From assembly GCA_017623235.1 (NCBI GenBank), contig JAGAPN010000033.1, positions 13,725 to 77,724 of the forward strand: 64,000 bases of DNA, read 5' to 3'. This DNA is from Clostridia bacterium (lineage in GTDB: Bacteria; Bacillota; Clostridia; Oscillospirales; Acutalibacteraceae). Both the position numbers and the translations under genes were made by a program. The notes under the pieces were generated by a model. That model was not told the origin of the DNA and did no database searches. It saw nothing but the letters and a program-made list of their open reading frames with translations. The first letter of the stretch is position 1. Each line of letters starts with the position of its first letter. This document shows positions 25,249 through 63,735 of the stretch, piece by piece.

Positions 25249-25279
25249 TGCAAATAAAATAATAATGGAGGCAAATAAA

Positions 25280-32795: not shown

Positions 32796-32801
32796 TTTGT
32801 T

Positions 32802-43724: not shown

Positions 43725-46673
43725 ATGACCGAGAAGGAAATTATAAGAAATAAGGTTTTAGCCGAAAACGTTATCTATTATCAGAAGACCATAGCCGTCC
43801 TTTGTGATGAGCGCCCCGGCTTCGAAATTAAAGAGGCTCGCAGGGTTATAGCCCATTTAAGAGAGCAGGGCTACTACGTTCACGAAATAACGGTGGATGA
43901 TTTTTTAAAGGCCTTCAAGCATCATCTTGGCTTTTTGCTCATCATTCCCCACGCCTCGTCTTTGCCTGCCGTATGCTCGGGTAGACTGAATGATTTTGTG
44001 TCTACAGGCGGCTCTGTGCTGACCTTTGGCGGCGTACTTTTCGGTAAATACGTTGAAAAGGTTGACGGCAAGTGGACCGAAATTCCCCTGCCCGATAATA
44101 TATTTGATGCCGTTCATACAGGTGACGGCAGTAAGCCCAAGGCCGAGCCTATTGTTATCGAGGGAATAGTGCCTACCTATAAAACCTACCGCTGTAACGA
44201 TGCCGTAAAATTCACCTCTAACCCCTTATATACCTCTGCAAAGGTTGCTACCGATGAGGAGCTTCGTGTAGTTTGTCCCGTTGCCCGTCCCTACGGAGGC
44301 GGTTATAATATGGGCTATCGCAATCGTTATATCCCCATTACCACTATTGACGGCAAAAGTGACCGTGGTGACGGTAGCGAGGGCGCAGCCGCCTTTATGA
44401 TGCTCAGTGACACTGTGGGTCACGAGCCTACTACCAATATCGTATATGCAGGTACCGTAGGTCACACCAACCTGGGCTCGGTAGCCGCTAATATCGGCAT
44501 TATGCGCCAGGACCTTATGGATATTGAGGGTGTTCCACAGCTTATCACCGATATTGTTGATAGTTTCTGCCGCGGTCTGCACATCTTCTCGGCAGGTGCC
44601 GATAAGTTTACCTACTCCGATGGTGAGCGTGCCGTATTCGGCGCCTCGGTTCACAACTGTACCGTAGACTATAAGCCTGCCACAGTCACCATAACTGTCG
44701 AAAAGCAGGGCGAAGCGGTTTACTCCTACACCGAGGAACTGCTCTGCGCTCCCCTTGGCTATACCGACTGCACCTTTGCCTGCGAAGGCTTTAAGGCCGA
44801 TGAATATACCGTTCGCACAACCCTTTCCTTTGAGGGTGATATAATAGATACCACCGCCCAGGAAATACATAAAAAAGAGGTGGTAAAGGGTCACTTCCCC
44901 GAGGATTTCGTCAGGGTAGAGGGTGACAACTTTATGCTGGGCGACAAGGTCTGGTACCCCATCGGTATGAACTACTGGCCTCTTTATATGCCCGGCTTTG
45001 AGCGCTCTCATTACTGGCTCTGCTGGCTGGACAAGTCCAACTATATTCCCGAGGAGATAGAGAAGGACCTTGCTCTTATGGAAAAAATGGGCATCAACTG
45101 CCTGTATATGCGTATAGACGGTGACATCTTCCAGCGTCAGCGCTCCACCTTTGAGGATTTCCTTATCAGGTGCCGCCGCCACAATATGAAGCTCTGCTTC
45201 TCCTACTGCAATATTACCACCCCCAACCATTATAACGGTGCCGCCTTCAGAAAGCTGATGAAGGAATTTAACCTGCTGGATGACCCCATTATCTTCAGCC
45301 ACGATATTTCCTGGGAAACCGACGGCGGTTTTATGGCCACCCCTTATATTAAGAGGTATGATGAGGCTTGGCAGCAGTGGCTTATCGACCGTTACGGCTC
45401 GCTGGAGAACGCCGAGGCCGATTTTGGTATGAAGCTTGACCGCAGGGAGGACGGCGTTGTCACCTGCATTAACGAGTTCCTCTTCAAGGAGGAGGGGGAG
45501 TGGCGTGTTCAGGTAACCGCCTACCGCCGTTTTGAAGAAGACTATATGAGCAGGCTGTGGCGTGAGGCTATTGAGGATATCCGCCTGGTTGACCCCAAGC
45601 ACCTGGTTTCCTACCGCAGAGGTCCAATAGGCTCCTGGTGTAAGGACGTTAAGCCTGCCAGCAAGCACGTGGACTATAACAGCCACGAGGCCTATCATAT
45701 AACCCTGGGTGATGATGGCTACCACGAGGCCTGCGCCAATGCGGCCTACTTTGATATGATAAGCAAGAATAAGCCACTTATATGGTCGGAATACGGCCTT
45801 ACTCTTACGGGTATGAACCGCACTAACGACTTTGTGTGGGACCACGAAACCGAGCGTCCTATGGCCTTCCGTATGAAGATGACCGAGGATTATAATAAAC
45901 AGATGCAAAAGGCCTTTGCCCGTACAGGTGTCAAGGGTACCGCTCCCTGGTACTGGCCCGGCGGCCTTCGTATGGTGGAGATGAGCGACTGCGGCTACTG
46001 CGGTCCCGACGGCATTCTTCGACCATTTGGTAAGGATTACGCCAAGTTTATTTCCGAGTATTTCAGCAATCCCAATAAACCCACACCCGGAAAATATAGG
46101 GTTAAGGTAGATGTCGAGCAGGATGCCAGAGGTTACTTCAGTATGTTCCGTGAGCGTCTGGTTGAAGAGGACCGCAAGGCAGAGGAAATGGGCTGTATAT
46201 TGGAGCTTTATACCGACGGCACAGGCACCACCTCGGCAAACACCCCCCTTACCGCTGTGGGTAATATGCCCTATAACGGCAACAATCCTCCCAAGTTCTT
46301 AAACGGTGAGTTTAACCGCCTGACCCTCTTTGTAAACGGCACAGCTCAAAGGGTAGCCTACGGCTCCACAGTAAGGGTACCTGCAGGGGCCACCGTGGAG
46401 ATAGAGGCAAGCCTGGGCAACCTTAAGGATGCCACCTGGCTGAGCCCCTTAGGCTTTGAGGGTGACGGCGGCGTGTATATGGTATCTAACCCCGATTCCG
46501 ATATAGTGCTAAAGACCCCCATTTTAACCGACACCCCGTTCCTGGAGGATACCGTGACCCAAAAGACGGCAGTTTCCCTGCCCGCAGGGGAGAGCAAGGT
46601 AGCCCTTCGCCTCTCGGCTGAAAACCGTGCCGACTTCGGTGAGGTCTTCCGCTTTAATATCATAGCAGAATAA
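43725..46673 (+). CDS. Large (982 aa) cytoplasmic protein with a clan-GH-A-like (b/a)8 core, of unassigned family
   Basis: No signal peptide. FMLGDKVWYPIGMNYWP, EKDLALMEKMGINCLYMRI, FSHDISWETDG (candidate acid/base), KPLIWSEYGL (candidate nucleophile Glu). N- and C-terminal accessory domains. The family call is inference. Confidence 0.45.
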   Translation: MTEKEIIRNKVLAENVIYYQKTIAVLCDERPGFEIKEARRVIAHLREQGYYVHEITVDDFLKAFKHHLGFLLIIPHASSLPAVCSGRLNDFVSTGGSVLTFGGVLFGKYVEKVDGKWTEIPLPDNIFDAVHTGDGSKPKAEPIVIEGIVPTYKTYRCNDAVKFTSNPLYTSAKVATDEELRVVCPVARPYGGGYNMGYRNRYIPITTIDGKSDRGDGSEGAAAFMMLSDTVGHEPTTNIVYAGTVGHTNLGSVAANIGIMRQDLMDIEGVPQLITDIVDSFCRGLHIFSAGADKFTYSDGERAVFGASVHNCTVDYKPATVTITVEKQGEAVYSYTEELLCAPLGYTDCTFACEGFKADEYTVRTTLSFEGDIIDTTAQEIHKKEVVKGHFPEDFVRVEGDNFMLGDKVWYPIGMNYWPLYMPGFERSHYWLCWLDKSNYIPEEIEKDLALMEKMGINCLYMRIDGDIFQRQRSTFEDFLIRCRRHNMKLCFSYCNITTPNHYNGAAFRKLMKEFNLLDDPIIFSHDISWETDGGFMATPYIKRYDEAWQQWLIDRYGSLENAEADFGMKLDRREDGVVTCINEFLFKEEGEWRVQVTAYRRFEEDYMSRLWREAIEDIRLVDPKHLVSYRRGPIGSWCKDVKPASKHVDYNSHEAYHITLGDDGYHEACANAAYFDMISKNKPLIWSEYGLTLTGMNRTNDFVWDHETERPMAFRMKMTEDYNKQMQKAFARTGVKGTAPWYWPGGLRMVEMSDCGYCGPDGILRPFGKDYAKFISEYFSNPNKPTPGKYRVKVDVEQDARGYFSMFRERLVEEDRKAEEMGCILELYTDGTGTTSANTPLTAVGNMPYNGNNPPKFLNGEFNRLTLFVNGTAQRVAYGSTVRVPAGATVEIEASLGNLKDATWLSPLGFEGDGGVYMVSNPDSDIVLKTPILTDTPFLEDTVTQKTAVSLPAGESKVALRLSAENRADFGEVFRFNIIAE

Positions 46674-46674
46674 G

Positions 46675-46709
46675 AAAAGAGCAACAGATTTTAAATCTGT
46701 TGCTCTTTT
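46675..46709. terminator. Bidirectional rho-independent terminator between convergent genes
   Basis: AAAAGAGCAACAGATTT t AAATCTGTTGCTCTTTT followed by extra T residues. It exactly fills the gap between the stop at 46673 (+) and the stop at 46711 (-). Confidence 0.85.
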
Positions 46710-46710
46710 T

Positions 46711-48936
46711 TTATACGCCCTGTAAAAATCTTTCAACCACAAGCTGGCGGAAGCGCGGAGAAAGGGATGCAAAATATGCCGTAAAGCCGGTTACCCGTAC
46801 CACCAAATCGGGGTGCAGGGTGGGGTCCTTGTGGGCCTCCATCAGTTTTTCGGTATCCAGCACGTTTATGTTTATAAGGGTGCCGCCATTTTCAAAATGG
46901 CTCTTTATAAGGGTGGAAACTATCTCTACACCATTTTCATCCTCGGCAATTTGGGGGTCAAACTCCAGCTGCAGGGGAGCGGTGTTGCCCCAGCCGCACT
47001 GTACGGCGGCAATACCGTTGGATTGGGCGGTAACGGCGCCGTCATTTCTGAAATGGGGGTTGGGATTTGCGCCGTGGGATATGGGCTCTCCCGTTCTTCT
47101 GCCGTTAGGAGTAGCCCCTACGGCGGAGCCGTATTCGATGGTTCTCGCCCAGGAAAACCAACCGGGAATAAGCTGTCTGCCCTCGGGCATAGGTGTAGAT
47201 TTTATCTTTTCTACCCAGCAATCGGTAAGGCGCTTTGCCCAGCGGTCGGCAGGGGTGTTTCCGCCGCAGTATTTGGGGGCAGAATTCAGCATCAGCCTTA
47301 TTCTTTCTCCCATAACACCATCAAAATTATTATCAAGACAGGTGAAAACCTCATCCCAGGTCAGCGCCTTTTCGTCTTCAACCCTCTGCTCCAATGCGCC
47401 GAAGGAGTCGGCTACAACCGCCAGACCCGCCCCGTCAACGCCTACGGTATAGAGCTTGGCGCACCTTGAAATATCAAGGCCCTTTTCCAAGGTGTCCTCC
47501 ATCATCAGGTTCATAATAAGCTCGGGGGTAACCTCTGCCTGGTGGTCAATATGCAGGTTGATTCCTGCCGCAGTAACCTCTGCCGCCTTTTCAAGATGAC
47601 GGCCGAAAATATCAAATAGCCTCTCGGTAGAGGGCCGGCCGCCCTCTTGGCGCATTGTTTTGATAGATTGCTCCAGCACCTTGGCCACGTTTATCTTTAC
47701 GGTGTCGTTCATAGGAAACTCTATACCCGGCACGCACATCCAGTTACAGCCCACCGCTATTCGCCGCCTTGCAATTTCCTTGGTAACGCCAAGGTTTCGC
47801 ATATATCCCTCGGATAAATTTTTGTCCGAGCAAAATCTGGGCCAGGCATTTTTATTTTTAAGCAGATAATATACCGCTTTTCTGAAAAATTCCTTATCGC
47901 AGTTCTCGTGATACCGTACCGTGATATTGGCCGAAATGTTTATCTGGTCGCAGGCGTCAAGTATAAGGTAGGAAAGGTGATTGGTAAGGTCACGGTCCTC
48001 CGCATCAACACCCGATACCTGGTAGTAGTGGGGGTCAATAAGCAGTAGATTGGCTATAAGGAATTTGGCCTTCTCATCATCTAAAATACCTGCCTCAAGG
48101 TCCCTTTTATAGTAGGGATAAAGCAGGGTATCCAGCTGAAAGCCTGCGCCGTCACGGGTATATATTCGGGATGCAATATTAAAGTAGGCTACCCATTGGC
48201 AGGCCTCGTAAAAGGTTTTCGGCGCCGCAAGACGGATGCTGCGGTTTACCTCCAGCATTTCCTCAAGGCTTGCTTTAATTTCCGGTCTGGCTTCTGCCTT
48301 AATAAGCCGTTCTATTTCTTCAATATTTCGCTCTATAAAGCGGATTATTGCCTTAACGCACTTTTCTTCCGCATCATAGAAATCGGCCTTGTCGGGGTTA
48401 ATTTTGCGGTATTTTTCTATTTTTTCAAGAAAACCGCCAAAGCCCAACCCCAGGCCTATAGAATAGTCGCAGGCCAGGTGGGCGTCGCCGTCAATACCCG
48501 TCTGAATATTATAAAACTTCTGCAGGGGCTTTAGATGGTCGTAGGGGAAATTCTTCTCATCCCACCGCTTGCTCCATTGGTTGGTAACCCCCGTCAGGTC
48601 CTCGTCCTTTAGCTGGGCCTTGCGCCATTTTGGCATATAATGCAGGTCACCGCGGTAGTTTACCAGCATATCACGCCAGCGGCCGCACAGCAGCTCCATA
48701 GGGTCAACGTAAGGGGGGTGGGCATCCATAACTCGGCAGAAATTTTCACTCATACCGTCAAGACAGTAAAAGCTGCCGTTTTCCGAGTTAAACCAAGGCT
48801 CCACCCTGTAGCCCTCGGGCAGGGGAACGGTGCCGAAATCATCCAGGTCGGTATAACCGTTCTGCTCTAATTTATCCAGGGTGTGCTGTATTTTAGTTTT
48901 TCTTATGGCTGATATTCTGTCCTTATAGGTCAGCAT
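46711..48936 (-). CDS. Glycyl radical enzyme (PFL-fold), 741 aa, function unknown (GRE2)
   Basis: C-terminal DLVVRVTGFTAYFASL (Gly717, codon 46786-46788). Thiyl loop RRIAVGCNWMCVPG (Cys397 codon 47746-47748, Cys401, no Glu at +2). Other blocks are TFYEACQWVAYFNIASR, GATPNGRR and GGTLININVLDTEKLMEAHKDP. Confidence 0.85.
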   Translation of the reverse strand: MLTYKDRISAIRKTKIQHTLDKLEQNGYTDLDDFGTVPLPEGYRVEPWFNSENGSFYCLDGMSENFCRVMDAHPPYVDPMELLCGRWRDMLVNYRGDLHYMPKWRKAQLKDEDLTGVTNQWSKRWDEKNFPYDHLKPLQKFYNIQTGIDGDAHLACDYSIGLGLGFGGFLEKIEKYRKINPDKADFYDAEEKCVKAIIRFIERNIEEIERLIKAEARPEIKASLEEMLEVNRSIRLAAPKTFYEACQWVAYFNIASRIYTRDGAGFQLDTLLYPYYKRDLEAGILDDEKAKFLIANLLLIDPHYYQVSGVDAEDRDLTNHLSYLILDACDQINISANITVRYHENCDKEFFRKAVYYLLKNKNAWPRFCSDKNLSEGYMRNLGVTKEIARRRIAVGCNWMCVPGIEFPMNDTVKINVAKVLEQSIKTMRQEGGRPSTERLFDIFGRHLEKAAEVTAAGINLHIDHQAEVTPELIMNLMMEDTLEKGLDISRCAKLYTVGVDGAGLAVVADSFGALEQRVEDEKALTWDEVFTCLDNNFDGVMGERIRLMLNSAPKYCGGNTPADRWAKRLTDCWVEKIKSTPMPEGRQLIPGWFSWARTIEYGSAVGATPNGRRTGEPISHGANPNPHFRNDGAVTAQSNGIAAVQCGWGNTAPLQLEFDPQIAEDENGVEIVSTLIKSHFENGGTLININVLDTEKLMEAHKDPTLHPDLVVRVTGFTAYFASLSPRFRQLVVERFLQGV

Positions 48937-49702
48937 ATTTTTTCAGCTCCTCCATTTTTGCCCTGTTGGGTATCTTAAATTCGTTTAGGCTTAATCCAAG
49001 AGCCTCCCGCTTGCTCTCACCCAGGGGATGATAGGGTAGAAGCTCATAACCCAAAATATTCTTAAAATCCTTGATAAAATCCCTTATTTTGCTTATTTCT
49101 TCGGGGTTGTCGTTAATACCCGGGATAATGGGGGTCCTCACAATAAAGGGCACGCTGAGAAGGTCCAGCATAATAAAATGGGGCTTTATCTTGTCGTTAT
49201 AAACCCCGATATATTTGTGGTGCTTTTCTCTGTCCCAAAGCTTAAAATCGGCCATTACCAGGTCAACGCTGCCAAGGATTTCGGGATTATAGATAAATAA
49301 TGAGGTTTCTATTGCGGTATGAATACCTTCCTTTTTGCAAAGGGCGATAAGCTCTTTCAGTATTTCGGGGTATAGCAGAGGCTCCCCACCCGAAAAGGTG
49401 ACACCGCCGCCACCTGCGTAGCTGGCCTTATCGAGCAATATTTCATCAAAGATTTCCTCTGCGGTCATTTCCTTACCGCAGATAACCCTTGCCCCGGCGT
49501 AGCAGCCCTTTTCACAAAGACCGCAGCCGATGCATTTTTCGGGATAAAAAAGGGTCTGTGGCGCCTTTTCAATGCATTCGGGATTGTGACACCAGGCGCA
49601 GGAAAGGGGACAGCCCTTAAAAAATACGGTGGTACGTATTCCGGGACCGTCGTGTAGGGAGGCCCGCTGAATATCGGCTACGATAGCGGTGTTTTTATCC
49701 AT
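48923..49702 (-). CDS. Glycyl-radical-enzyme activating enzyme (radical SAM), AE2
   Basis: HDGPGIRTTVFFKGCPLSCAWCHNPE. A single CIGCGLCEKGC...C insert (5 Cys). GGEPLL. Overlaps GRE2 by 14 nt. Confidence 0.85.
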   Translation of the reverse strand: MDKNTAIVADIQRASLHDGPGIRTTVFFKGCPLSCAWCHNPECIEKAPQTLFYPEKCIGCGLCEKGCYAGARVICGKEMTAEEIFDEILLDKASYAGGGGVTFSGGEPLLYPEILKELIALCKKEGIHTAIETSLFIYNPEILGSVDLVMADFKLWDREKHHKYIGVYNDKIKPHFIMLDLLSVPFIVRTPIIPGINDNPEEISKIRDFIKDFKNILGYELLPYHPLGESKREALGLSLNEFKIPNRAKMEELKKYADL

Positions 49703-50792
49703 TTATCTCTTCCTTTTTACCGCTTTCTGCTGAACGCAGAGCGGCATCTATAAGAGCCATAAGCTGGATGTTGAAATCCAGGGTTACGGTTTTAATAAAG
49801 GGTGTGCCCTCTCTTTTACAGTAGGCGTAATGGTCGGGCAGATTTTTTATAGCAGGGTGAATTTCATAGTCGGGCAGGGGAATAACCTCGCCGTAGCTGT
49901 TCATAGCTACAACCCTTTTGTCGGCATCGCAGAAAAGCACACCGTCGGTGCAAAGGTAAACGGGGCCTGTAGGCAGAGAGGCCTGGGGTACCGTCCAGCT
50001 ACCCTCAACCACACCGTAGGAATCCTTATATTCGATAATTCCTGCCATATTGTCGGGGGCATTCATATAGGGGGTGCCGTAGTTGCCCGAAAAAGCCATA
50101 ACCGAAAGAGGCTTATCGGTGGCATTATCCCTTGCCCATTGGTTGAAGAAACAGCCGTAGCAGCCGATATCAAGGAATGCGCCGCCCCCCGTTTCATTCT
50201 TATACCACCAGGTGGATGACCTCTCTTCATCGGTCATTTCCTGGGCCTTTTCACTAACGCCTCGATGCTTGGCACCCTTGCCCAGGGGGCCTGTATGACC
50301 GTTTATGTAAAAGGCCTTAATCAGCTTTCCGACAACACCGCTCTCCAGAGCCGCCAGCTGCTGATGCAGGTAGGGCCGCCAGATAACGGGCCAGTTAACT
50401 ACGGCCTCAATGCCGTATTTTTCTACCGATGCCTTTATTTTAAGGGTATCGGCAAGGCTTACGGCCATAGGCTTTTCGATGCTGACGTTAACGCCTCTTT
50501 TTGCACACTCCTCAACTATAAGGGGCTTATTTGCGTTATCGCAGAGAATGAATGCCAAATCGGGCTTTATTTCATCCAGCATTACCCTGTAATCCTCGTA
50601 AGGAGTTATGCCGAATTTTTCGCTGTTGTTCTTAATATTCCAGGCTCTGGTATATCTGGCCTGGGTGTTTTCGGGGGTTTCGGGGGGTACGTCGGCCATG
50701 CCTGCCAGGGTAAAATCGGGGCACTCGTCAATATACTGTGCAATCTCGTTTACGTGCATGTGGGCAAAGCCGATTATAACTGCTTTAAACAT
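49695..50792 (-). CDS. Gfo/Idh/MocA-family oxidoreductase
   Basis: N-terminal Rossmann segment FKAVIIGFAHMHVNE, EKP motif (VSIEKPMA), 365 aa. 8-nt overlaps on both sides. Confidence 0.75.
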   Translation of the reverse strand: MFKAVIIGFAHMHVNEIAQYIDECPDFTLAGMADVPPETPENTQARYTRAWNIKNNSEKFGITPYEDYRVMLDEIKPDLAFILCDNANKPLIVEECAKRGVNVSIEKPMAVSLADTLKIKASVEKYGIEAVVNWPVIWRPYLHQQLAALESGVVGKLIKAFYINGHTGPLGKGAKHRGVSEKAQEMTDEERSSTWWYKNETGGGAFLDIGCYGCFFNQWARDNATDKPLSVMAFSGNYGTPYMNAPDNMAGIIEYKDSYGVVEGSWTVPQASLPTGPVYLCTDGVLFCDADKRVVAMNSYGEVIPLPDYEIHPAIKNLPDHYAYCKREGTPFIKTVTLDFNIQLMALIDAALRSAESGKKEEING

Positions 50793-51858
50793 TTATCTTC
50801 ACCTCTCGGCCTTCCTTTGCGGAAAGGTAGGCCGCCTCAAGTATTGCGGTAACGTTCAGGGTTTCCTCGGGCAGAACGGCAGGGGACGCCTTGCCGTTTA
50901 TTACCTCTGCCATATTCTTAACCAGGCAGAAATGTCCGTAGAAGGGGTCATCCTTAAAGCCATTGGGAGTAACCTCTAAATCTTTTATATCCTCGGCGCC
51001 GCTATAGACCTTTTTGGCCTCAATATCGACGCCGCAGTTTTTACCTGCAAGAATAATATTGTTTTCCTCTCTGAGGTTTGCCGCCCAGGCCACCTTAAAG
51101 GAGAGGGTTGCGCCGTTTTCAAAACGGACGCTGCCACCCGAGAAGGATTCAACGTTCATATCGTCGGGATTAAAGCCTGAGGTATCGACGTTGCCCTTAA
51201 GTGCCCCCGAGCTTTTGTCGGAGCCCAGCTCATCGGAATGTATTTTACTCATTGTGGCGGTAACCGAAACAGGCTTGGGGTTGCCCATAAGCCATATTGC
51301 GCTGTCGATACCGTGAACGCCAATGTCCACCAGGGCGCCGCCACCCGAAAATTCCTTAAGGTGGAACTTGCCCCAGGTGGGAATACCTCTTCTGCGAATA
51401 CGGGACAGCTCGGCATAATAAACCTCGCCTACAGCGCCGCTTTTAACCTGCTCAAAGGCAGCCTGGCGCTCGGGCAGAAAACGCAAGCTCTGGCAGGCCA
51501 TAAGGGTAAGACCTGCGTCTTTTGCGCAATTAAACATCTCCCTTGCATCGGCCAGGGTAAAGGCCAGGGGCTTTTCGCACAGCACGTTTGCGCCGTGGTT
51601 TAGGGCCAGCATAGTGTATTCTTTGTGAAGCATATTAGGGGCGCAGACCGATACCAGGTCGGGCTTTTCGGTTTTCAGCATCTCCTCGGCATCTGTGTAA
51701 ACCCTGGGTATACCGTGGGTAGCGGCAGCCTTTTCTGCCGCAGGGGAGTATATATCGAATATACCCGCTATCTCAAAATCCTCGGGATATGCTTTATATG
51801 CAGGGATGTGGGCGGAATTTGCTATCATTCCTGCGCCGATAATACAAACCTTAAGCAT
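50785..51858 (-). CDS. Gfo/Idh/MocA-family oxidoreductase
   Basis: MLKVCIIGAGMIANSAHIPAY, VLCEKPLAFT, GALVDIGVHGID. Confidence 0.8.
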   Translation of the reverse strand: MLKVCIIGAGMIANSAHIPAYKAYPEDFEIAGIFDIYSPAAEKAAATHGIPRVYTDAEEMLKTEKPDLVSVCAPNMLHKEYTMLALNHGANVLCEKPLAFTLADAREMFNCAKDAGLTLMACQSLRFLPERQAAFEQVKSGAVGEVYYAELSRIRRRGIPTWGKFHLKEFSGGGALVDIGVHGIDSAIWLMGNPKPVSVTATMSKIHSDELGSDKSSGALKGNVDTSGFNPDDMNVESFSGGSVRFENGATLSFKVAWAANLREENNIILAGKNCGVDIEAKKVYSGAEDIKDLEVTPNGFKDDPFYGHFCLVKNMAEVINGKASPAVLPEETLNVTAILEAAYLSAKEGREVKINV

Positions 51859-52621
51859 TTTCTATCTCCTTTAAAAAACCAAGGGTCTCGCTGTCGGGCA
51901 GGGTGGCCCTGTATTCAAGACCGATATGACCCTTATAGTCGGTTTTATTTATTGCCTTTATTATGGAAACGTAGTCAACCCCTCCCGTTCCGGGCTGATG
52001 TCTTCCCGGGCAATCTGCCACGTGGAAATGACCGATAAGGTGAATGTTATCCAGCACCTGCTTTAGGTCGAAATCACCCATCATATTCTGATGATAGATG
52101 TCGTAAAGCATCTTTACGTGGGGGCTGTTTATTTCATCCAGCAACTCGAAAACGGGGGTGGCCCAGGGCATAGAATATCCTATCCTGTCTTTATCGTTAA
52201 GGGGCTCTACCACCAGGTTGACGTCGTGCTCCTCCAGCAGGGGCAGGGCGGCGGTAAGGCAGGCCTTAACCTTGTCCTTGTTGTAGGGGGCGTTTTCACC
52301 AATCAGCACTATCATGGCAGAGGCGCCCAGCCTTTTGTATACGGGGATGCTCTCCTTCAGGGCGGCTATAAAATCCTCACACCTGCCGTCGTTAAGTATT
52401 CCACGGGAAAGGTCGTAGGAAAGCTGCTCATCGGTGCTGTCTATATTGAAGATAGAAAGCTTCATATCCTCACTTTTCAGAATGTTCTCCACTCGGTCTA
52501 CGTCCTTGTTGGTCCATTTCCAGAACTCGGCGGTGTCATACCCACAGCCCTTCACAAGGCCGAATTTATCGTAAAATTCGGCCGTTGAGAACATCATATC
52601 AATACAAAGGCTTACCTTCAT
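51851..52621 (-). CDS. Hydroxypyruvate-isomerase-like (Hyi/OtnI-type) xylose-isomerase-fold TIM-barrel protein
   Basis: NLVVEPLN...VKMLYDIYHQNMMGDF...IGHFHVADCPGRHQPGTGGVDY...YKGHIGLEY parallels E. coli Hyi (IEPIN...IQYDIYHMQRMEGEL...IGHLQIADNPHRGEPGTGEINY...GWVGCEY). I prefer the ATG at 52621 (MKVSLCIDMMF, GGAG RBS), because the track's longer start would overlap the upstream gene's stop at 52633. Confidence 0.7.
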   Translation of the reverse strand: MKVSLCIDMMFSTAEFYDKFGLVKGCGYDTAEFWKWTNKDVDRVENILKSEDMKLSIFNIDSTDEQLSYDLSRGILNDGRCEDFIAALKESIPVYKRLGASAMIVLIGENAPYNKDKVKACLTAALPLLEEHDVNLVVEPLNDKDRIGYSMPWATPVFELLDEINSPHVKMLYDIYHQNMMGDFDLKQVLDNIHLIGHFHVADCPGRHQPGTGGVDYVSIIKAINKTDYKGHIGLEYRATLPDSETLGFLKEIENA

Positions 52622-52632
52622 CGTTATCTCCT

Positions 52633-54969
52633 TTAATAATCCAGGTCGTATCTTGTGGCGGCATACTTGCAGTATTTCCACAGTCCCATAAGACGGAATG
52701 ATTTCAGCTCATCCTCGCTTCTTATTTCGGTATAGGCAATATCAATGCCCTTTTCCTTACATTTAAGATAATTTTCCTCGGTGATGTAGGACTCTCCGCC
52801 GTTGGAAACGTAGATGAATTTGGGGTTATTCTCTCCGTAGGTGGCTATCTGACTAATGAGGGTGTCTGTTATTTTCTGCACCCAGGTACCCATAGCCGCC
52901 TTGGGGAGCTTATCTGCCAGATATACAAGGTCCGCTGCCGTCTGTCCGTTTATCATAAGGTTATCCTTATGACCGTAGAGGTCAATGAGAGCCACCAGCT
53001 CATCCAGCTTATCCTCGGTAAGGTCAACCTTTAATTCCAGATGGGGTACGACCTCTAATTCTTTACAAAGGGCCAAGAATTCCTCAACACGCATAATTTT
53101 TGTGCCCTTATACTGCTGACCCTTATATACACCGAAATCGTAGGTGTCGGCCTGGGCCAGGGTGATGTCGGCAATATTTATGGCTTCGTCGTTGGTTATA
53201 CGTTTGCCCTCGCTGTTGGTGGCGTAGCTGTTAATGGTCTTGTCGTGCAGGGCAACAAAATGTCCGTCTGAGGTCAGCCTTACGTCGCACAGCAGAATTT
53301 TATATCCCTTTTCATAGGCCATTCTGTAGGAGGCCAGGGATTGCTGGGGCGGGGTGTTGCTGTCGTAGGGACGGTAGCCGATACGGGCTATCTTCTGTAC
53401 GGCACGCAGACCCTCGCCGATAGTATCGTTAAGCAAAGCGGTACGGAAGTTAGCGGCATCCTCAGCATCTACAGAGCCGTTTTTGTTGGTATCGGAAATA
53501 TAGTAATAATCCTTGCTGACGTTCATATATACCAGGTCCCTTATATCAAACAAAGTGTCACCGTTGGCATCATAGTCCAGGGCGATATATGCGGGATTTT
53601 TAAAATGCTCGTAATAGTCAAAATTGTTCTTATCGCTTAAAACTGTGCCGTATCCCCCTGCTGAAACGGTGGCAGAATCCTCCTTGCCCACCGTACCGCC
53701 AAAGAATTTGGGACCGTCGGCCCAGCCGTAAAGACCCATATCAAAATTGGGATTAACCAGCAGATTGGTTCGGGTGGTATCGCCCTTTTTATACAGGAAG
53801 AAATTAGAGTAATTGCCCACCAGGGCGGTAGAGCTGTTTATTCTGACACCTACAATATGTCTTACCCTGTAGCCGTTCTCTTCGATAGAGCAGGCGTCGT
53901 CACCGCCTGCAGTAAAGGTAACGTAGGAAAGGTTGTAGGGACCGTACTCAAGGTTAGCCTCCTTGCATTGGGCCTCGGTAAGGTCGCAGGTCTTTTGAAT
54001 ACTACCTCGCACAGAGGAAAGGCGGGTAGTGGTGTTTGAGGTCTTGGAAGAGCCGGTCTGGTACTCGACCCATAAGGGCTCGTTCTTGTATCCGGAGTTG
54101 TCCTTGGTATCCACCGTGCCGTAGGCGCCGAAAACATACTCTACACCCTTTTCCAGGGCAATAGTCTGTCCAAAGGTAACGTTGCTTACGGCATTGTTGT
54201 TGGCAAGGTATTTGGGATTGCCCGTTACCTTGTCGGTGGAGGTGTAGGTGAAGCTTTCTATATAAGCGTAATCCTCGGGACTGGTGGAGGAGCCGCTGAC
54301 ACCAATACCTGCCGTACCCTTTAAATAGGGAGCTTCGGTGTCAAGGTAGGTGCCGGTTACCACCAGCTTTTCGGTATCGCCGTCAAGGGTGTAAAGGTTT
54401 ACGGTAATGGCCGCGGCCTTATCTCCGCTTATCACCATCTCCAGACGATAGCTCATACCCTCCTGCTGTGCGCTGACGCCGCATTGAAGCAGAGGGTTAT
54501 TGTTATCGGCGGTGCCGTTTATCTTGTGAAGCATTACTTTGCCGTTTGAGGGGCGGTAAAGGGCATAATATCCTGCCATTGTGGTCCAGTCACCGGGCCT
54601 GCTTAATCGGCCGTAAACGTAGGCTGTGTTACCCTTGGCCAAATCCTCATCGCTGAACTCTACCGCTATACGCTGGTTTTCACGCTCCATTTCGGGCAGA
54701 TAAATACAACCTGCGTAGGCCGAGCGGGTTTGCTTTTGGGTGATGACCTTCAGCTTTCCGTTTTCTACTGTGGAGGTGTATGCCCTGCCGTCGGTGGTTA
54801 CATTTTCCTCGGCCATAAAGGCCCAACTGTTTGCCAGGGAATTGCCTGTAAATTCGTCGGAATACACCCCGTTAATAGAGGTGGCAGTACCCTGCACCGT
54901 CATACCTGTGGGGGTGCAAATGGTAAGGCAAATTATAAGGGATAAGACTAAAGCGGCTATTCTTTTCAT
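52633..54969 (-). CDS. Secreted modular protein: LamG-like module, jelly-roll module, internal dockerin and a C-terminal divergent GDPD-like (PLC-like phosphodiesterase TIM-barrel) domain
   Basis: Signal peptide MKRIAALVLSLIICLTICTP. Shared modules with 61990..63666. Dockerin loops DANGDTLFDIRD and DTNKNGSVDAEDAANF at ~53425-53585. GDPD-like IARIGYRPYD...LLCDVRLTSDGHFVALHDKTIN at ~52633-53400. Confidence 0.65.
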   Translation of the reverse strand: MKRIAALVLSLIICLTICTPTGMTVQGTATSINGVYSDEFTGNSLANSWAFMAEENVTTDGRAYTSTVENGKLKVITQKQTRSAYAGCIYLPEMERENQRIAVEFSDEDLAKGNTAYVYGRLSRPGDWTTMAGYYALYRPSNGKVMLHKINGTADNNNPLLQCGVSAQQEGMSYRLEMVISGDKAAAITVNLYTLDGDTEKLVVTGTYLDTEAPYLKGTAGIGVSGSSTSPEDYAYIESFTYTSTDKVTGNPKYLANNNAVSNVTFGQTIALEKGVEYVFGAYGTVDTKDNSGYKNEPLWVEYQTGSSKTSNTTTRLSSVRGSIQKTCDLTEAQCKEANLEYGPYNLSYVTFTAGGDDACSIEENGYRVRHIVGVRINSSTALVGNYSNFFLYKKGDTTRTNLLVNPNFDMGLYGWADGPKFFGGTVGKEDSATVSAGGYGTVLSDKNNFDYYEHFKNPAYIALDYDANGDTLFDIRDLVYMNVSKDYYYISDTNKNGSVDAEDAANFRTALLNDTIGEGLRAVQKIARIGYRPYDSNTPPQQSLASYRMAYEKGYKILLCDVRLTSDGHFVALHDKTINSYATNSEGKRITNDEAINIADITLAQADTYDFGVYKGQQYKGTKIMRVEEFLALCKELEVVPHLELKVDLTEDKLDELVALIDLYGHKDNLMINGQTAADLVYLADKLPKAAMGTWVQKITDTLISQIATYGENNPKFIYVSNGGESYITEENYLKCKEKGIDIAYTEIRSEDELKSFRLMGLWKYCKYAATRYDLDY

Positions 54970-54986
54970 AAACCCTGTCTCCGTTT

Positions 54987-56267
54987 TTATTTTTCTTCGT
55001 AGTAATCCTTCTTTTCAAAGGTAAGTCTTTCAAGATTTTTTGGGGCATCGCCGAAATCGGGAACCTCAATGGGCAGTCCGTCCTTCATAGCCGACTCGTG
55101 GGCTATAATTCCGGGGATGATGTATCTTGCCGAATCCCAGGCGTTATTGGGGGGCAGCTTGTTTGCTACCACCGCTCTCATAAAGTCGTCCACCAGGAAG
55201 GGGTGAGAGTTGTAGTGAACGGTATCGGGGCAGCTTCTGAATGCCAGGGGCAGACGGTCAACGTCGTGAATAGGGGCGAAGCCTCTGTGAGCAGGCTCCG
55301 AAATGGGGTAGGTGTTTATCGCAAAATCGGGAGCCTTGGAGGTCTTTGTATAGGTGTTGGTGTTCAGCAGGTCGCTGACGTAATCAATTCTTGTATCGTC
55401 CACACCTGCTGCGGTACCCTTTATAAGCACGTGCTGGGTAACCGAGCCCTCGTAGCCACCCTTGTCGCCGTAAAGGCAGGTTATGTAGGAGGAGGGCTTG
55501 TGGGGGATACCTGCGCGGCGGAACTCATTAATTCTGGCCACACCGCCGCCCGACATCTGCATAAGGGCGGTTTCATTACTGAAGGGGTTATCCCAATTAT
55601 TTTTACCCTTGCCGAAAACACCGTCCTCGTGGTTATCTCGGTAGCCCATACAGCTTACCTTGGTAACGTGCTCGTCTATAACCGAGGTAATCATAGAAAT
55701 AGAATGGGTGGAGTAGTACATAGGAGGAATACCTGCAACCCTCTTCCAATCCTTGCCGCCTGAGTGGGCAAAGGCGTAGTAGAAGGTGGCCATATCGTGG
55801 TAATACTGGCTTTCTCCGTAAACAAATTTACCGAGCAGTCCTTTGCGGTAAACATCACGGCAGAAGATAGCGCAGGGGAAGTAGTAGCAGGTTTCACCTG
55901 TCATATAAACCATACCCGTGCGCTTTACTGCTTCAATAATTTTCCCCATATCCTCAATATCCGAAGCCATAGGCACGGCGCTGAAAACGTGCTTGCCTGC
56001 ATTAAGGCAATCCACCGCCATACTGCCGTGGAGGTGACGCTGTGTAAATATTGCCACACAGTCAACGTCCTTGCCCTCACGCAGCACCTCTTCAAGGGAG
56101 TGGAATATTCGGCTTATACCGTGTTTCTTGGCGGCGGCATCGCACCTTTCGGGTACAATGTCGGCTACCGATACCTCAGCCACGTCGGGATGGCTTTTAA
56201 AAAGGGGAATAAAAAAGTCGGAAAACTCTCCTAAACCCACTATACAAACCTTATGCTGCTTTGACAT
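54987..56267 (-). CDS. Gfo/Idh/MocA-family oxidoreductase (426 aa form)
   Basis: MSKQHKVCIVGLGEFSDFF Rossmann start. I prefer the ATG at 56267 (RBS GAAAGAAGG) over the TTG at 56285. It is the first gene of the - strand operon that ends with GRE2. Confidence 0.65.
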   Translation of the reverse strand: MSKQHKVCIVGLGEFSDFFIPLFKSHPDVAEVSVADIVPERCDAAAKKHGISRIFHSLEEVLREGKDVDCVAIFTQRHLHGSMAVDCLNAGKHVFSAVPMASDIEDMGKIIEAVKRTGMVYMTGETCYYFPCAIFCRDVYRKGLLGKFVYGESQYYHDMATFYYAFAHSGGKDWKRVAGIPPMYYSTHSISMITSVIDEHVTKVSCMGYRDNHEDGVFGKGKNNWDNPFSNETALMQMSGGGVARINEFRRAGIPHKPSSYITCLYGDKGGYEGSVTQHVLIKGTAAGVDDTRIDYVSDLLNTNTYTKTSKAPDFAINTYPISEPAHRGFAPIHDVDRLPLAFRSCPDTVHYNSHPFLVDDFMRAVVANKLPPNNAWDSARYIIPGIIAHESAMKDGLPIEVPDFGDAPKNLERLTFEKKDYYEEK

Positions 56268-56333: not shown

Positions 56334-56370
56334 AATGGACAAAACGGTATTTTTTGCATATAAAACGGTA
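56334..56370 (-). promoter_or_regulatory. Two phased direct repeats (AAAACGGTA, 21-bp spacing) in the divergent promoter region between the oxidoreductase operon and the AraC gene. Candidate operator.
   Basis: AATGGACAAAACGGTA (56334-56349) and GCATATAAAACGGTA (56356-56370). Both longer strings recur identically at 63736-63751 and 63780-63794. On the - strand the proximal repeat abuts a TTGTCC -35-like hexamer. Confidence 0.6.
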
Positions 56371-56405: not shown

Positions 56406-57260
56406 ATGATAAAAATAAAATATAAAAAACGTCGGGAGGTGCCTGAAATAAATATCTATGACAGCATTTTCAGCCTGCCTGAAAATGAGTTTTTCGTGGG
56501 AGATTTTGCCGCCGTCCGCAAGGAGATTATTCCTCCCGCACATTTCAAATGCCATAAAAATCTGGTGCTTTATCAGCGGTTTGTATATGTAGTAAAAGGT
56601 ACTTTTATCTTTAACGATGAGGTGCATAAAAACGTAAGATTTGAGCCCGGGGATATCATTTATCTTCCCTCCGACGTGGTTTATGAATCCTATTGGGAGA
56701 AGGACGAGATAGGGGAGTTTATTTCACTTAATTTCTGCCTTTACGACCCCTTGCATAATAATATAAATCTTTTTGACGACTTGGTGCTGGCCTGTAAAGA
56801 CCCCGACCGAAAGCTTTTCTCGGTGTTTGACGAGGTCCAGGAAATCTGGAATAAATCTGCCAGAGGCCATAAGCTGCAGTGTATATCCCATCTTTATGCT
56901 CTGCTTTACCGTATAGGCAAATATTCCTTACGACTTGAAGAAGGCAGTAAAAACGCCATATCAAAGGCGGTTATATACCTGGAAAATCACTTTTTAAACG
57001 ACGTCACCGTGGAGGACCTGGTAAAGCTTACCAACGTGGGAGAGTGTCAGTTTAGGCGAAGCTTTAAGGCCCTTAAGGGAATGTCACCCATAAAGTACCG
57101 CAATATGCTTAGGATGACCAAGGCCATAGACCTGCTTAAAACGGGGGAGTATTCGGTTGTGGAGGCCTCTATGATAGTAGGCTTTGATGACCCTTCATAT
57201 TTTTCCAAGCTTTTTAAAAAACAGTTTGGCCAGAGTCCTTCGAGTTATATACCGCAATAA
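56406..57260 (+). CDS. AraC/XylS-family transcriptional regulator
   Basis: N-terminal cupin-like sensor region. C-terminal double HTH VEDLVKLTNVGECQFRRSFKALKGMSPIKYRNMLRMTKAIDLL...VVEASMIVGFDDPSYFSKLFKKQFGQSPSSY. Confidence 0.85.
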   Translation: MIKIKYKKRREVPEINIYDSIFSLPENEFFVGDFAAVRKEIIPPAHFKCHKNLVLYQRFVYVVKGTFIFNDEVHKNVRFEPGDIIYLPSDVVYESYWEKDEIGEFISLNFCLYDPLHNNINLFDDLVLACKDPDRKLFSVFDEVQEIWNKSARGHKLQCISHLYALLYRIGKYSLRLEEGSKNAISKAVIYLENHFLNDVTVEDLVKLTNVGECQFRRSFKALKGMSPIKYRNMLRMTKAIDLLKTGEYSVVEASMIVGFDDPSYFSKLFKKQFGQSPSSYIPQ

Positions 57261-57295
57261 AAAAGGGAGAAGATTCACCGAATCTTCTCCCTTTT
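57261..57295. terminator. Bidirectional rho-independent terminator
   Basis: AAAA GGGAGAAGATT caccg AATCTTCTCCC TTTT, between the AraC stop (57260) and the rhaM stop (57300). Confidence 0.85.
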
Positions 57296-57299: not shown

Positions 57300-57617
57300 T
57301 TATCTGAAACTGAATACCTGCCGCATTAAAGGCTGGGCACCCGTTTCGGGGTCAAGCTCCATTACCATAATGTCGGCCATATATTCATTCCAGCGGTCAA
57401 CCACAGCGCTTTCACGTTGAACCCGTGCGGCGTGGTCGACCCCTTTTTCACATTCGTAGTATCCGAAAAGGTCGTTACCTGAGTTCCAAATACTATAGTT
57501 TACTATACCGGCCTCGGTAAGCACCGCCTTCATTTCATCCCACAGGGCATCGTGACGGCGTATGTATTCATCCAGACAGCCTTCCTTTACGGTTGCCTTC
57601 CAAGCATATTTTTCCAT
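57300..57617 (-). CDS. rhaM: L-rhamnose mutarotase
   Basis: 105 aa. YAWKATVKEGCLDEYIRRHDALWDEMKAVLTEAGIVNYSIW...LFGYYE...RWNEYM matches the RhaM/YiiL family pattern. Confidence 0.8.
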   Translation of the reverse strand: MEKYAWKATVKEGCLDEYIRRHDALWDEMKAVLTEAGIVNYSIWNSGNDLFGYYECEKGVDHAARVQRESAVVDRWNEYMADIMVMELDPETGAQPLMRQVFSFR

Positions 57618-57626
57618 AAATATACC

Positions 57627-58967
57627 TTATTTCAGCTTATCAAGCACGTCGTTGGTGCTCTTAACGGCGGCATCTACCAGGTTAGAATACTCGTTAAGCT
57701 TGGTGGATGCATTGGCGGGCTTTGCATTGATGATGCTGGCGTTGATGTGAATACCACCCTTACCGATATCGTCGGTGATAAGGCCGCAATCATAATTTAC
57801 GTACATATTTTCGGCCTTCATAAGAGCCTCGTGAACGTCCAGCATAGTGGGGTCACAGAAGAAGGTGTTCTTATCATAGTTTTCAGAGTCGAGGTAGTAG
57901 CGGAGGAAGAAGGGTGCAAGGCTTCCACAGGGAGCGCCCTGGGGAATAGCGTAAGCCTCTACCTCGGACCAAACTGTTGCATTGGTACCGCCGTCAATGG
58001 TGGGGAAGGGAACAGCAGCAAGAGCGCCCTGTGCCTTTAAGGACTTCCAATAGAAATGAGTACGGCGAACGCTGATAAGCGACTCTGTGAAGAAGAGAAT
58101 TTTGCCGTTTTCAAAGTTGTTGATATCGAAACGGATGTTGTTGGTGATGCCGTCCTCTCTGAGCTGGCACATCTTCTGCCAACCCTTTAAGAGGTTGGGG
58201 TCGCTCATATTGGAAACGAAGCGGTCACCCTCACGCTTAATCATAGCAGAACCGTAAGCATCGCCTGCGTCGGCCCACTGGTAAGAGGTCCAGGGCAGGT
58301 AGGTGTCGTCATCAACCTCTTCCTTGAAGGTCTTGCAGATTTCCTCAAACTTTTCCCAGTTCCAGTTGCCTTGCTTCCAGAGAGAGTAGGGGTCTTCAAG
58401 GTCAAAACGGTTTATAAGATTTTTGTTGTAAAGAAGTGCGCGGGGCTGCTGAAGCAGGGTGTTGCGCATATTGGTGCCGTAGGTTTTACCGTCAAAGGTG
58501 TAGAAATCCATAATACGGGTATCCCAGGCCTCGTCGGTGAAATCAAAATCAATGTTCTGCAGGGGCTCAAGCACACGGATAAGACCTGTGTCGATGCGCA
58601 TAAGTCTTACGATGTCAGGGGAGTCCTGAGAAGCAACACGGGCGGCAATTTTGGTAGAATATTCGTTGTAGCTGCCCTTTACCCATTCGATTTTAATGCC
58701 TGTTTCGTTCTCAAACTGCTCAACAACGTCTACTGCGCCTGTAACGTCGGTAAGGTCGTTCCAAGAGAATACCTCAATGGTCTTGCCCTTGGCATCTGCA
58801 GGAATTTTGGCCTTGATTTCCTGCCAGCCTGCATTATTGGCAGAGTTGCCGGTATTGTTGCCCGAGCTTCCGGTGTCGGAGCTGTCGCCGTTTCCGCCAC
58901 AGCCAGCAACGGTGAATACCATAGCTAAAGCCAGAAGAAGACAGATAAGTTTAGATGCGATTTTCAT
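57627..58967 (-). CDS. ABC transporter substrate-binding lipoprotein, orphan paralog of 22301..23665
   Basis: Lipobox FTVAGCGGNGDSS. Extensive shared blocks with the 454-aa SBP. No permease genes adjacent. Confidence 0.8.
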   Translation of the reverse strand: MKIASKLICLLLALAMVFTVAGCGGNGDSSDTGSSGNNTGNSANNAGWQEIKAKIPADAKGKTIEVFSWNDLTDVTGAVDVVEQFENETGIKIEWVKGSYNEYSTKIAARVASQDSPDIVRLMRIDTGLIRVLEPLQNIDFDFTDEAWDTRIMDFYTFDGKTYGTNMRNTLLQQPRALLYNKNLINRFDLEDPYSLWKQGNWNWEKFEEICKTFKEEVDDDTYLPWTSYQWADAGDAYGSAMIKREGDRFVSNMSDPNLLKGWQKMCQLREDGITNNIRFDINNFENGKILFFTESLISVRRTHFYWKSLKAQGALAAVPFPTIDGGTNATVWSEVEAYAIPQGAPCGSLAPFFLRYYLDSENYDKNTFFCDPTMLDVHEALMKAENMYVNYDCGLITDDIGKGGIHINASIINAKPANASTKLNEYSNLVDAAVKSTNDVLDKLK

Positions 58968-59068
58968 TTGTGTTCCTCCTTGAAATTTATATTATAATGA
59001 TAAAACATTTAAGGACCCTGTTCAAGTTATAATAATGCTGAATTATATAACAAAATCATTCTAAAATA

Positions 59069-61975: not shown

Positions 61976-61989
61976 ATCATCCGCCTCCT

Positions 61990-63666: not shown

Positions 63667-63735
63667 AATATTTTCTCCTTTTTGAAGAAGTAATAACACA
63701 TCATTATAATTTTATCACATTAAAGCGTTTTCTTG

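Follow-up and report, generated by a model that had tools for sequence, protein, structure and literature searches.

A seven-gene cluster on the minus strand of a 64,000-nt stretch of genomic DNA from a Clostridia bacterium of the family Acutalibacteraceae (contig JAGAPN010000033.1; the whole stretch is referred to as the window) was found to combine a glycyl radical enzyme (GRE), here called GRE2, and its activase with three proteins of the Gfo/Idh/MocA oxidoreductase fold and a xylose-isomerase-like TIM barrel. The best explanation of the system as a whole, to which we assign a probability of about 0.6, is an AraC-controlled catabolic cassette of uncultured gut Clostridia (Acutalibacteraceae/Oscillospirales) that would oxidize a sugar, cleave it by radical chemistry and reshape the product. 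We hold with considerably more confidence that the GRE, the Gfo proteins and the TIM barrel form a functionally coupled sugar cassette containing a GRE of a new type; the specific order of steps and the chemistry proposed below are tentative.

The open reading frame (ORF) listing and Pfam searches placed seven co-directional, tightly packed genes at positions 46711-56267. Listed from GRE2 to Gfo1, they are:

46711-48936, minus strand: GRE2, glycyl radical enzyme, 741 aa (Pfam PFL-like and Gly_radical)
48923-49702, minus strand: AE2, radical-SAM GRE activase, 259 aa (Pfam Radical_SAM, Fer4_12 and Fer4)
49695-50792, minus strand: Gfo3, divergent Gfo/Idh/MocA oxidoreductase, 365 aa (Pfam GFO_IDH_MocA)
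50785-51858, minus strand: Gfo2, homolog of DgpA-type sugar/glycoside 3-dehydrogenases, 357 aa (Pfam GFO_IDH_MocA)
51851-52621, minus strand: xylose-isomerase-like TIM barrel of the Hyi/OtnI branch, 256 aa (Pfam AP_endonuc_2)
52633-54969, minus strand: secreted protein with a C-terminal GDPD domain, 778 aa (signal peptide; Pfam GDPD)
54987-56267, minus strand: Gfo1, atypical protein of the Gfo/Idh/MocA fold, 426 aa (Pfam match to the N-terminal domain only)

An earlier note, written from the nucleotide sequence alone, had described seven minus-strand genes at these positions, joined by overlaps of 8-14 nt or gaps of 17 nt or less. All seven were recovered as ORFs, and the junctions from GRE2 to Gfo1 measured 14 nt (AE2/GRE2), 8, 8 and 8 nt of overlap followed by gaps of 11 and 17 nt. 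The domains it had named (a GRE, an activase, three Gfo proteins, a TIM barrel and a GDPD protein) were each matched by Pfam. Gfo1 starts at an ATG preceded by AAGAAGG. The TIM-barrel gene was taken to start at the ATG at 52621 rather than at the GTG at 52681, because its orthologs all begin with MK.S.CIDMMF and the public gene call concurs.

On the combined evidence of its glycyl loop, cysteine position, modeled fold and adjacent activase, GRE2 is predicted to be a true glycyl radical enzyme. It matched PF02901 and PF01228 with E-values of 6e-89 and 2e-13, respectively. The glycyl loop, VVRVTGF, contains G717 and was present in 119 of 120 homologs, and the cysteine loop reads AVGC(397)NW(399)MCVPG, with C-N-W retained in 117 of the 120 close homologs. 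In phmmer alignments to 2f3o, 1r8w and 8yjo, C397 fell on the catalytic cysteine, the position of C433 in glycerol dehydratase (GD). An AF2 model of GRE2 (pLDDT 89.9, pTM 0.91) superimposed on solved GREs with Foldseek TM scores of 0.75-0.84 among the 50 chains listed, at ~20% identity. AE2 scored 264 bits on TIGR02494, above the cutoff of 174, and carries a CX3CX2C motif together with a short, Cys-rich, ferredoxin-like insert.

By sequence, GRE2 is of no characterized GRE type. Its best NCBIfam score was 269 bits against a cutoff of 678, and every model remained under its cutoff, including the 1,2-eliminase and isomerase models (TIGR01774, HypD, CutC, HpfG/HpsG and PflD). Equivalog models gave 150-200 bits against cutoffs of 1000-1109, and the pyruvate formate-lyase (PFL) model TIGR01255 gave 70.7 bits against 994. 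All GRE 1,2-eliminases and all three isomerases retain a CXE motif, the Glu of which is hydrogen-bonded to the substrate (Imrich et al., 2026; PMC13450708). This motif is absent from GRE2, where the loop is C397-N-W399; HMMER alignments placed its C-N-W onto the C-V-E of GD, PflD and the A. fulgidus PFL2. Likewise, the adjacent Cys-Cys pair of pyruvate and ketoacid formate-lyases is missing from the loop (G-C-N-W). Both C397 and W399 were invariant in 53 sequences down to 40% identity (alignment A4), as were H153, D157, W365-P366-R367, R392, E406, D411 and F594-S595-W596. Foldseek ranked dehydratases, isomerases and CutC equally, and the fold gave no hint of the substrate. Orthology of GRE2 to a known GRE is ruled out by the NCBIfam cutoffs, the cysteine-loop motif and the Foldseek comparison; in particular, the identities that the earlier note had named as damaging to its proposal, an ordinary PFL or an ortholog of a known dehydratase, are both contradicted by the cutoffs and the C-N-W loop.

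Compared with the GRE 1,2-eliminases and isomerases (glycerol/propanediol dehydratase, HypD, CutC, HplG, YbiW, PflD), GRE2 shares the fold (TM ~0.8), the RVxG loop, the position of the catalytic cysteine, a radical-SAM activase and equivalents of GD His164 and Asp447. It differs from them in its ~20% identity, in the replacement of the CXE Glu by an invariant Trp, and in invariant residues of its own (W365-P366-R367, F594-S595-W596 and E406). It differs, too, in its operon partners, which are Gfo/Idh/MocA proteins rather than aldehyde dehydrogenases, kinases and aldolases, or microcompartment proteins.

The linkage of GRE2 to these partners proved to be conserved. Eighteen genome loci and further contigs were collected, and the window's proteins were mapped onto them by tblastn in addition to all-against-all clustering (loci are numbered L001 onward). 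The related loci came from metagenome-assembled genomes (MAGs) of Acutalibacteraceae, Oscillospiraceae and Ruminococcaceae from human, goat, buffalo, roe deer and rabbit gut. GRE2 itself is 100% identical to a protein in the MAG of an uncultured Clostridia bacterium. Synteny was counted in 19 distinct loci with GRE2 identities of 68-95% and at least 5 kb of upstream sequence. A Gfo3 ortholog lay directly upstream of AE/GRE2 in 18 of the 19 and a Gfo2-like gene lay beside Gfo3 in the same number; an activase adjoined GRE2 in 17, and the pair of Gfo1 and TIM barrel was present in 15. An AraC-family gene was usually adjacent. The earlier note had regarded loss of synteny among relatives as evidence against its proposal; the gene order is kept, with Gfo3 and a Gfo2-like gene in nearly every locus and Gfo1 with the TIM barrel in most. 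A sister family 43% identical to GRE2 also keeps the order Gfo2-like, Gfo3-like, AE, GRE (L028). From these comparisons the conserved functional unit consists of six genes (Gfo1, TIM barrel, Gfo2, Gfo3, AE2 and GRE2), and its core is the quartet of Gfo2-like, Gfo3-like, activase and GRE genes.

The surroundings of the cassette were different from one locus to the next. L020 has GH3, GH94 and mannose-6-phosphate isomerase (PMI) genes; L021 has a lyxose/mannose isomerase and a PfkB kinase downstream; L023 has GH43, GH38, SASA and arabinose genes; and L027 has a mutarotase, a lactonase, an MR_MLE dehydratase, a KDPG aldolase and DgoK. Such wholly different flanks imply that the cassette travels as a unit. 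Glycoside hydrolases and carbohydrate esterases were found around the cassette loci, and as judged by gene content the cassette appears always to reside in carbohydrate loci, conserved and co-regulated. Variation within the cassette was also seen. Two pairs of Gfo2-like and Gfo3-like genes precede AE-GRE2 in L010, L014, L017, L018, L021 and L026, and in L012, L013, L015a and L017 a PF12831 FAD oxidoreductase takes the place of the Gfo genes or is added to them, in some cases alongside a DHDPS-type lyase and a BNR_2 protein.

DgpA is an NAD-dependent 3''-dehydrogenase that starts the cleavage of C- and O-glycosides in a gut Dorea-like strain. Gfo2 matched the PDB entries for DgpA1/DgpA over residues 2-349 (E = 4.5e-51, 178 bits), with the next-best entry at 89 bits, and it contains the motifs GAGMIA, EKP and D..H. 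Five DgpA residues that are reported to make up the glucose pocket and catalytic center, K100, R159, W166, D182 and H186 (PMC9939296), were all identical in the alignment with Gfo2. Gfo2 is, therefore, a full-length DgpA homolog by sequence and is predicted to be of the glycoside 3-dehydrogenase type, with the C3 regiochemistry presumed.

Gfo3, the partner most tightly linked to AE2/GRE2, is very divergent. Its invariant residues include an unusual nucleotide loop, G8-x-x-H11-x-H13, the NAD-ribose aspartate D34, the EKP lysine Lys107 and a D208...Y212 dyad. Its PDB matches were weak overall (KijD10 3-ketoreductase, DgpA and GFOR), and the best single-sequence matches were the KijD10 sugar 3-ketoreductases at E = 1e-5. 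Gfo1 retains a Rossmann domain and an invariant PPM(Y/F)Y.THS and His188, and its profile matches were DgpA first, followed by YjhC/NanOx and GH109. It does not carry the canonical Gfo/Idh/MocA signature of an EKP lysine and an Asp...His/Tyr dyad: the EKP lysine is invariably lacking and SAVP[MI] stands in its place (SAVPM in Gfo1 itself), with S96, A97, V98 and P99 invariant (alignment A1). Among the profile matches of Gfo1, NanOx uses NAD transiently. The same is true of GH109 (PMC9939296). Many further His, Arg and Tyr residues are invariant in the Gfo1 family, which also has a C-terminal extension of ~150 aa without a Pfam match.

The TIM barrel gave its best NCBIfam scores on Hyi (TIGR03234; 135.8 bits against 353.45) and OtnI (NF043033; 114.4 against 325), and its profile matches were 3ngf, YgbM/OtnI, TM0416 and YcjR. 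Acidic and His positions typical of the xylose-isomerase-like fold were invariant (E139, D174, H177, H200, D203 and E236). The Hyi/OtnI placement proposed in the earlier note was right at the level of the branch; because both scores lie far under their cutoffs, the protein is not an ortholog of either enzyme and its substrate is probably a larger keto-sugar. It is predicted to be a keto-sugar or keto-acid isomerase or epimerase.

The regulatory sequences of the cluster are as follows:

56334-56307, minus strand: promoter-like site, TTAACA-16 nt-TATATT with an upstream TG
56341-56370, minus strand: operator adjoining the -35 box, with two perfect copies of TACCGTTTT in direct repeat (56341 and 56362; 21-nt spacing)
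56406-57260, plus strand: divergent AraC-family regulator (cupin sensor domain, HTH_18 and HTH_AraC by Pfam)
46675-46709, no strand assigned: hairpin terminator with a perfect 16-bp stem, common to the operon and the convergent plus-strand gene at 43725-46673
63743-63794, minus strand: second operator cluster, three copies of TACCGTTTT with 21/22-nt spacing, upstream of the operon at 57300-63699

Two features that the earlier note had read from the sequence, phased repeats at a promoter beside the AraC gene and a perfect bidirectional terminator, correspond to the two perfect TACCGTTTT copies and the hairpin at 46675-46709. In the window as a whole, 9 copies of the 9-mer TACCGTTTT were counted where 0.73 would be expected. 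The operator repeats lie between the operon and the divergent AraC gene, and a divergent AraC/XylS regulator with a direct-repeat operator at the -35 region is, at the level of sequence, the arrangement of an AraC-regulated operon. Homologs of the regulator adjoin the cassette in L001, L002, L008, L009, L011, L020, L023, L025 and L027. Both TACCGTTTT copies are conserved in L025, and the proximal copy is found at the Gfo1 promoters of L020 and L021. The second operator-bearing promoter precedes a minus-strand operon (57300-63699) that encodes a secreted protein paralogous to the GDPD protein, a Metallophos protein, a solute-binding protein and RhaM, and it shares with the first the block TACCGTTTTATATGCA as well as TACCGTTTTGTCCATT, which abuts the -35 box. 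The occurrence of the same operator and extended blocks at both promoters suggests one AraC regulon over both operons; that is, the AraC protein probably co-regulates the cassette and this sugar-uptake and mutarotase operon.

The mutarotase gene, rhaM (57300-57617, minus strand; L-rhamnose mutarotase, PF05336, E = 1e-24), ends at a second 16-bp hairpin (57261-57295) situated between rhaM and the 3′ end of the convergent AraC gene. Mutarotase genes were found near the cassette elsewhere as well, rhaM in L017 and Aldose_epim in L027, and such neighbors point to a free aldopyranose as substrate or product.

We propose the following route. The substrate would be a pyranose-like sugar, or a derivative of one, released from plant or host glycans, and Gfo2 would oxidize a ring hydroxyl, at C3, to a ketone. 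AE2 would install the glycyl radical on G717, after which C397 would form a thiyl radical able to abstract a hydrogen adjacent to the ketone. A captodative, semidione-like radical would result, which might be acidic enough to dispense with the lost Glu. It would then expel a C-O substituent or the ring oxygen, or break a C-C bond, at a position that an E1cB lyase could not attack because the position is not beta to the carbonyl. Gfo3 would re-reduce the product, and the TIM barrel and Gfo1 would turn it into an ordinary aldose or a keto-deoxy acid for central metabolism. The Trp-rich pocket of GRE2 (W399, W566 and W596) fits with stacking of a sugar. The order given in the earlier note, in which isomerization follows oxidation and precedes the radical step, was pure inference, as was the nature of the substrate.

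The route resembles that of DgpA/DgpBC from the gut Dorea-like strain PUE in its logic, in which a pyranoside is first oxidized at C3 so that an inert bond becomes labile, and the two systems share a DgpA-like enzyme with its catalytic and sugar-binding residues, a gut Clostridia setting and a xylose-isomerase-fold protein in the operon. The comparison that the earlier note drew with oxidation-dependent cleavage of glycosides and C-glycosides was, given the clear homology of Gfo2 to DgpA, an apt one. The systems differ in that no homolog of DgpB or DgpC occurs here. No DgpC/CGD entry was matched at the thresholds used, and the only TIM barrel is of the Hyi/OtnI, TM0416 and YcjR type, with a GRE and its activase standing where the bond-cleaving enzyme would be. 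Oxidation-elimination-hydration-reduction pathways (levoglucosan Lgd, the Bacteroides BT2156-2160 3-keto-glycoside pathway, NanOx/YjhC and GH109) are alike in directing several Gfo and xylose-isomerase-fold proteins at keto-sugar intermediates, whereas they employ no radical enzyme, and the window's proteins scored far under the cutoffs of the LGDH, BT_2158 and BT_2159 models. For the TIM barrel itself, Hyi and OtnI were the best family and structure matches and the fold-typical acidic and His positions are kept, although the scores (136 and 114 bits) fall well below the cutoffs (353 and 325).

Several observations weigh against the proposed route. All genomes compared were MAGs. In L012, L013 and L029 no Gfo gene adjoins the GRE, which is accompanied by a DHDPS-type lyase and an FAD oxidoreductase of PF12831 (the order in L029, a locus of the sister family, being DHDPS-AE-GRE-FAD oxidoreductase), and in L030, L031 and L032 no oxidoreductase was present in the flanks read; in L030, likewise of the sister family, the GRE lies between glycoside hydrolases. 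Such loci indicate that the Gfo partnership is specific to a clade and not obligatory. Gfo1, in which the catalytic Lys is lacking, is perhaps something other than a simple dehydrogenase. GRE2 keeps counterparts of GD His164 and Asp447, which may permit a diol-dehydratase-like elimination with another base. Lastly, no glycoside hydrolase or catabolic gene recurs consistently across the loci from which a substrate could be read: the differing flanks contain arabinose genes, GH38/GH43, GH94, GH65, a sialidase-like BNR protein with DHDPS, and De Ley-Doudoroff genes.

The recurrent neighbors were limited to carbohydrate esterases, mutarotases, the PF12831 FAD oxidoreductase and further GRE pairs. 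Candidate substrates weighed from the flanks, of which none was upheld, comprised RG-II sugars, rhamnose, sialic-acid derivatives (from the BNR_2/DHDPS variant), mannose/N-glycan, methyl-ether sugars, cyclitols, C-glycosides and anhydro-sugars.

The chief rival to the oxidation-first route, which also counts against it and which we judge unlikely, reverses the order of events. GRE2 would act first on an unoxidized sugar, anhydro-sugar, cyclitol or polyol, and radical 1,2-elimination or ring opening would give a deoxy-keto product that the Gfo proteins and the TIM barrel reduce and isomerize afterwards. This order would accord with known GRE eliminases and isomerases, which take alcohols and yield carbonyls (PMC13450708), with the retained GD His164 and Asp447 equivalents, with the single-sequence PDB relatives of Gfo3, all of which are sugar 3-ketoreductases, and with the aldose-processing genes downstream of the cassette. 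It is, however, difficult to reconcile with the replacement of the CXE base Glu by an invariant Trp and with the resemblance of Gfo2 to an oxidizing 3-dehydrogenase, and it leaves the need for two to six Gfo paralogs unexplained.

YbiW and PflD are GREs able to open sugar rings, and GRE2 could be conceived as an isomerase of this kind acting on an unphosphorylated 1,5-anhydro-sugar (anhydroglucitol, anhydromannitol or anhydrofructose), with the Gfo proteins as anhydrofructose reductases or dehydrogenases. We consider this improbable. GRE2 has PflD and YbiW among its best matches in sequence and fold, the Gfo/Idh/MocA group includes the anhydrofructose reductases, which were also found among the Gfo matches, and L021 and L020 contain a mannose/lyxose isomerase and PMI, respectively, but the CXE that YbiW and PflD need for deprotonation is absent, the PflD model gave 200 bits against 1109, Foldseek puts PflD/YbiW no closer than dehydratases, and the six-gene core has no kinase. 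It is still less probable, and indeed very improbable, that GRE2 is a small-polyol dehydratase of the glycerol/propanediol type whose neighboring oxidoreductases serve unrelated sugars: such dehydratases are found near the top of the PDB matches in both sequence and fold, yet GRE2 has no CXE and falls short of the subfamily cutoff (269 bits against 678), the cassette contains no aldehyde or alcohol dehydrogenase or microcompartment genes, and the translational coupling to Gfo3 and Gfo2 is tight and conserved. Chance adjacency, or an ordinary pyruvate or ketoacid formate-lyase as suggested by the family's public annotation, is effectively refuted by the missing Cys-Cys pair, the TIGR01255 score (70.7 bits against 994) and a synteny kept amid differing flanks down to 43% identity.

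The distribution of the C-N-W loop was determined in an exhaustive search of 1.84 billion cluster representatives. Loops of the form CxW were found in about a dozen full-length clusters 35-53% identical to GRE2, all of them GC[NH]W (50% clustering). Beyond these were clusters with GCQW, GCFW and GCGW, and then ordinary CxE GREs at 28-31% identity. Relatives of GRE2 among the candidates numbered more than 1800 proteins at E ≤ 0.001, and 120 clusters were at least 73% identical, and the sister family contained more than 3000 proteins at E ≤ 1e-100. The GRE2 clade was found in human and herbivore gut MAGs of fiber-degrading lineages and is publicly annotated as 'formate acetyltransferase'. The deeper GCHW clade, hosted by Chloroflexi, Bathyarchaeia and other phyla, occupies ABC-transporter loci without Gfo genes, which shows the Gfo link to be specific to the GCNW subclade. 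The CxW superclade as a whole (P0121-P0173; L028-L032) extends over gut Clostridia, Chloroflexi, Brocadiia, Poribacteria and Bathyarchaeia, typically in ABC-transporter or glycoside-hydrolase loci, and no member appears to have been characterized.

A bolder proposal, which we regard as doubtful, is that GRE2 founds a new functional class, the 'CxW' GREs, that would act on keto-sugars supplied by DgpA-type dehydrogenases and cleave C-O bonds (ring ether or alpha-substituent) or C-C bonds through a semidione-type radical without a Glu base. If true, CxW GREs would give anaerobes a redox-neutral means of opening or stripping sugar derivatives that resist both hydrolysis and beta-elimination. The earlier note's author was not aware of any such module joined to a GRE. 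Our literature search, in which most subscription journals were outside coverage, likewise found no GRE tied to Gfo/Idh/MocA or xylose-isomerase-fold modules and no GRE eliminase or isomerase without CXE, including in the 2026 review (PMC13450708). Since the GRE2 clade lacks the Glu that is universal in eliminases and isomerases according to that review, it may represent an eighth functional class.

The fixed coupling of a GRE to DgpA-like sugar dehydrogenases is without precedent in the literature covered and points to an unrecognized anaerobic fate of a dietary or host sugar derivative. GREs are oxygen-sensitive and are the chief means by which strict anaerobes carry out chemically hard reactions, and newly assigned members (CutC, HypD, IslA and YbiW/PflD) have each exposed a significant metabolic activity of the gut. 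The cassette is compact, consisting of six genes with a regulator and an operator. It probably points to a step of anaerobic carbohydrate degradation that is not yet described and constitutes a catabolic cluster built on a GRE, one that may belong to a new functional class; the finding is a real and promising lead for enzyme discovery. Of the earlier interpretation, the conserved linkage, the non-PFL GRE and the DgpA-like parallel stood, and the membership of the GDPD protein did not.

The secreted GDPD protein had been listed in the earlier note among the products of the operon, but its gene was found only in the window organism and in L025, a 95% relative, and was absent from the other loci. 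Its GDPD domain occupies residues ~527-675, and a PDB search returned GDPD enzymes only. The N-terminal 519 residues are 48% identical to the product of ORF 61990-63699, the first gene of the neighboring operon. The same region is paralogous to three large secreted proteins of the window, that one included (61990-63699, 48%; 25265-27583, 29%; 14979-21005, 24-33%), and constitutes a shared, unannotated extracellular module. A role in the pathway was rejected in view of this paralogy and the restriction of the gene to the window organism and L025; the gene is best viewed as a lineage-specific insertion that would belong with the window's extracellular machinery. GC and GC3 of the gene were indistinguishable from those of its neighbors, and composition speaks neither for nor against horizontal insertion. 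The LamG-like and dockerin labels once attached to the protein lacked profile support: at E ≤ 1 Pfam showed GDPD only, with no Dockerin_1 or LamG/Laminin_G, leaving the signal peptide and the GDPD domain. A DxNxDG-like pair was seen by eye at residues ~466-510, and a degenerate dockerin is possible.

Phosphoesterases are plentiful in the window (52633-54969, 59069-61975 and 40982-42666): besides the secreted GDPD protein there are a Metallophos protein of 968 aa, a histidine phosphatase and a PHP-domain protein. Such richness gives a hint that phosphate or phosphodiester groups are present on the imported glycan.

GRE2 had been described as the second GRE/activase pair of the window, and a first pair is indeed present:

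30813-33566, with the run of genes continuing to 35788, plus strand: first GRE/activase pair

At 660 aa the first GRE is unusually short; it has a C-W-E cysteine loop and, like GRE2, scores under every NCBIfam cutoff. Its activase gene comes next, and then those for a DUF5696 protein and a YgjV membrane protein. Further GRE/activase pairs were observed in L018 and L027. Next to the cassette in L020 (12433-15554), an extra GRE is encoded by two ORFs, one for a PFL-like protein of 701 aa and after it a separate one of 80 aa with the Gly_radical domain, and an activase comes next, an arrangement that could possibly represent a split GRE or a spare glycyl-radical cofactor.

The PF12831 FAD-dependent oxidoreductase (~390-400 aa) was a recurrent partner of these GREs, as an alternative or an addition (L012, 8246-14330; L013, 2127-3308; L029, 8169-13398; L028, 3880-5094), in many cases with a DHDPS-family lyase beside it and, in L012, with a BNR_2 sialidase-like protein as well. 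In a recurrent block downstream of the cassette (L001, 11921-17954; L002; L023, 17745-22241), three proteins with ferredoxin motifs (~300-360 aa) are encoded together with a 337-aa protein that has no annotation, a small cupin-like protein and a DUF5696 protein. The window's DUF5696 gene has a 65%-identical counterpart in L001 and L002, located downstream of the GRE2 cassette.

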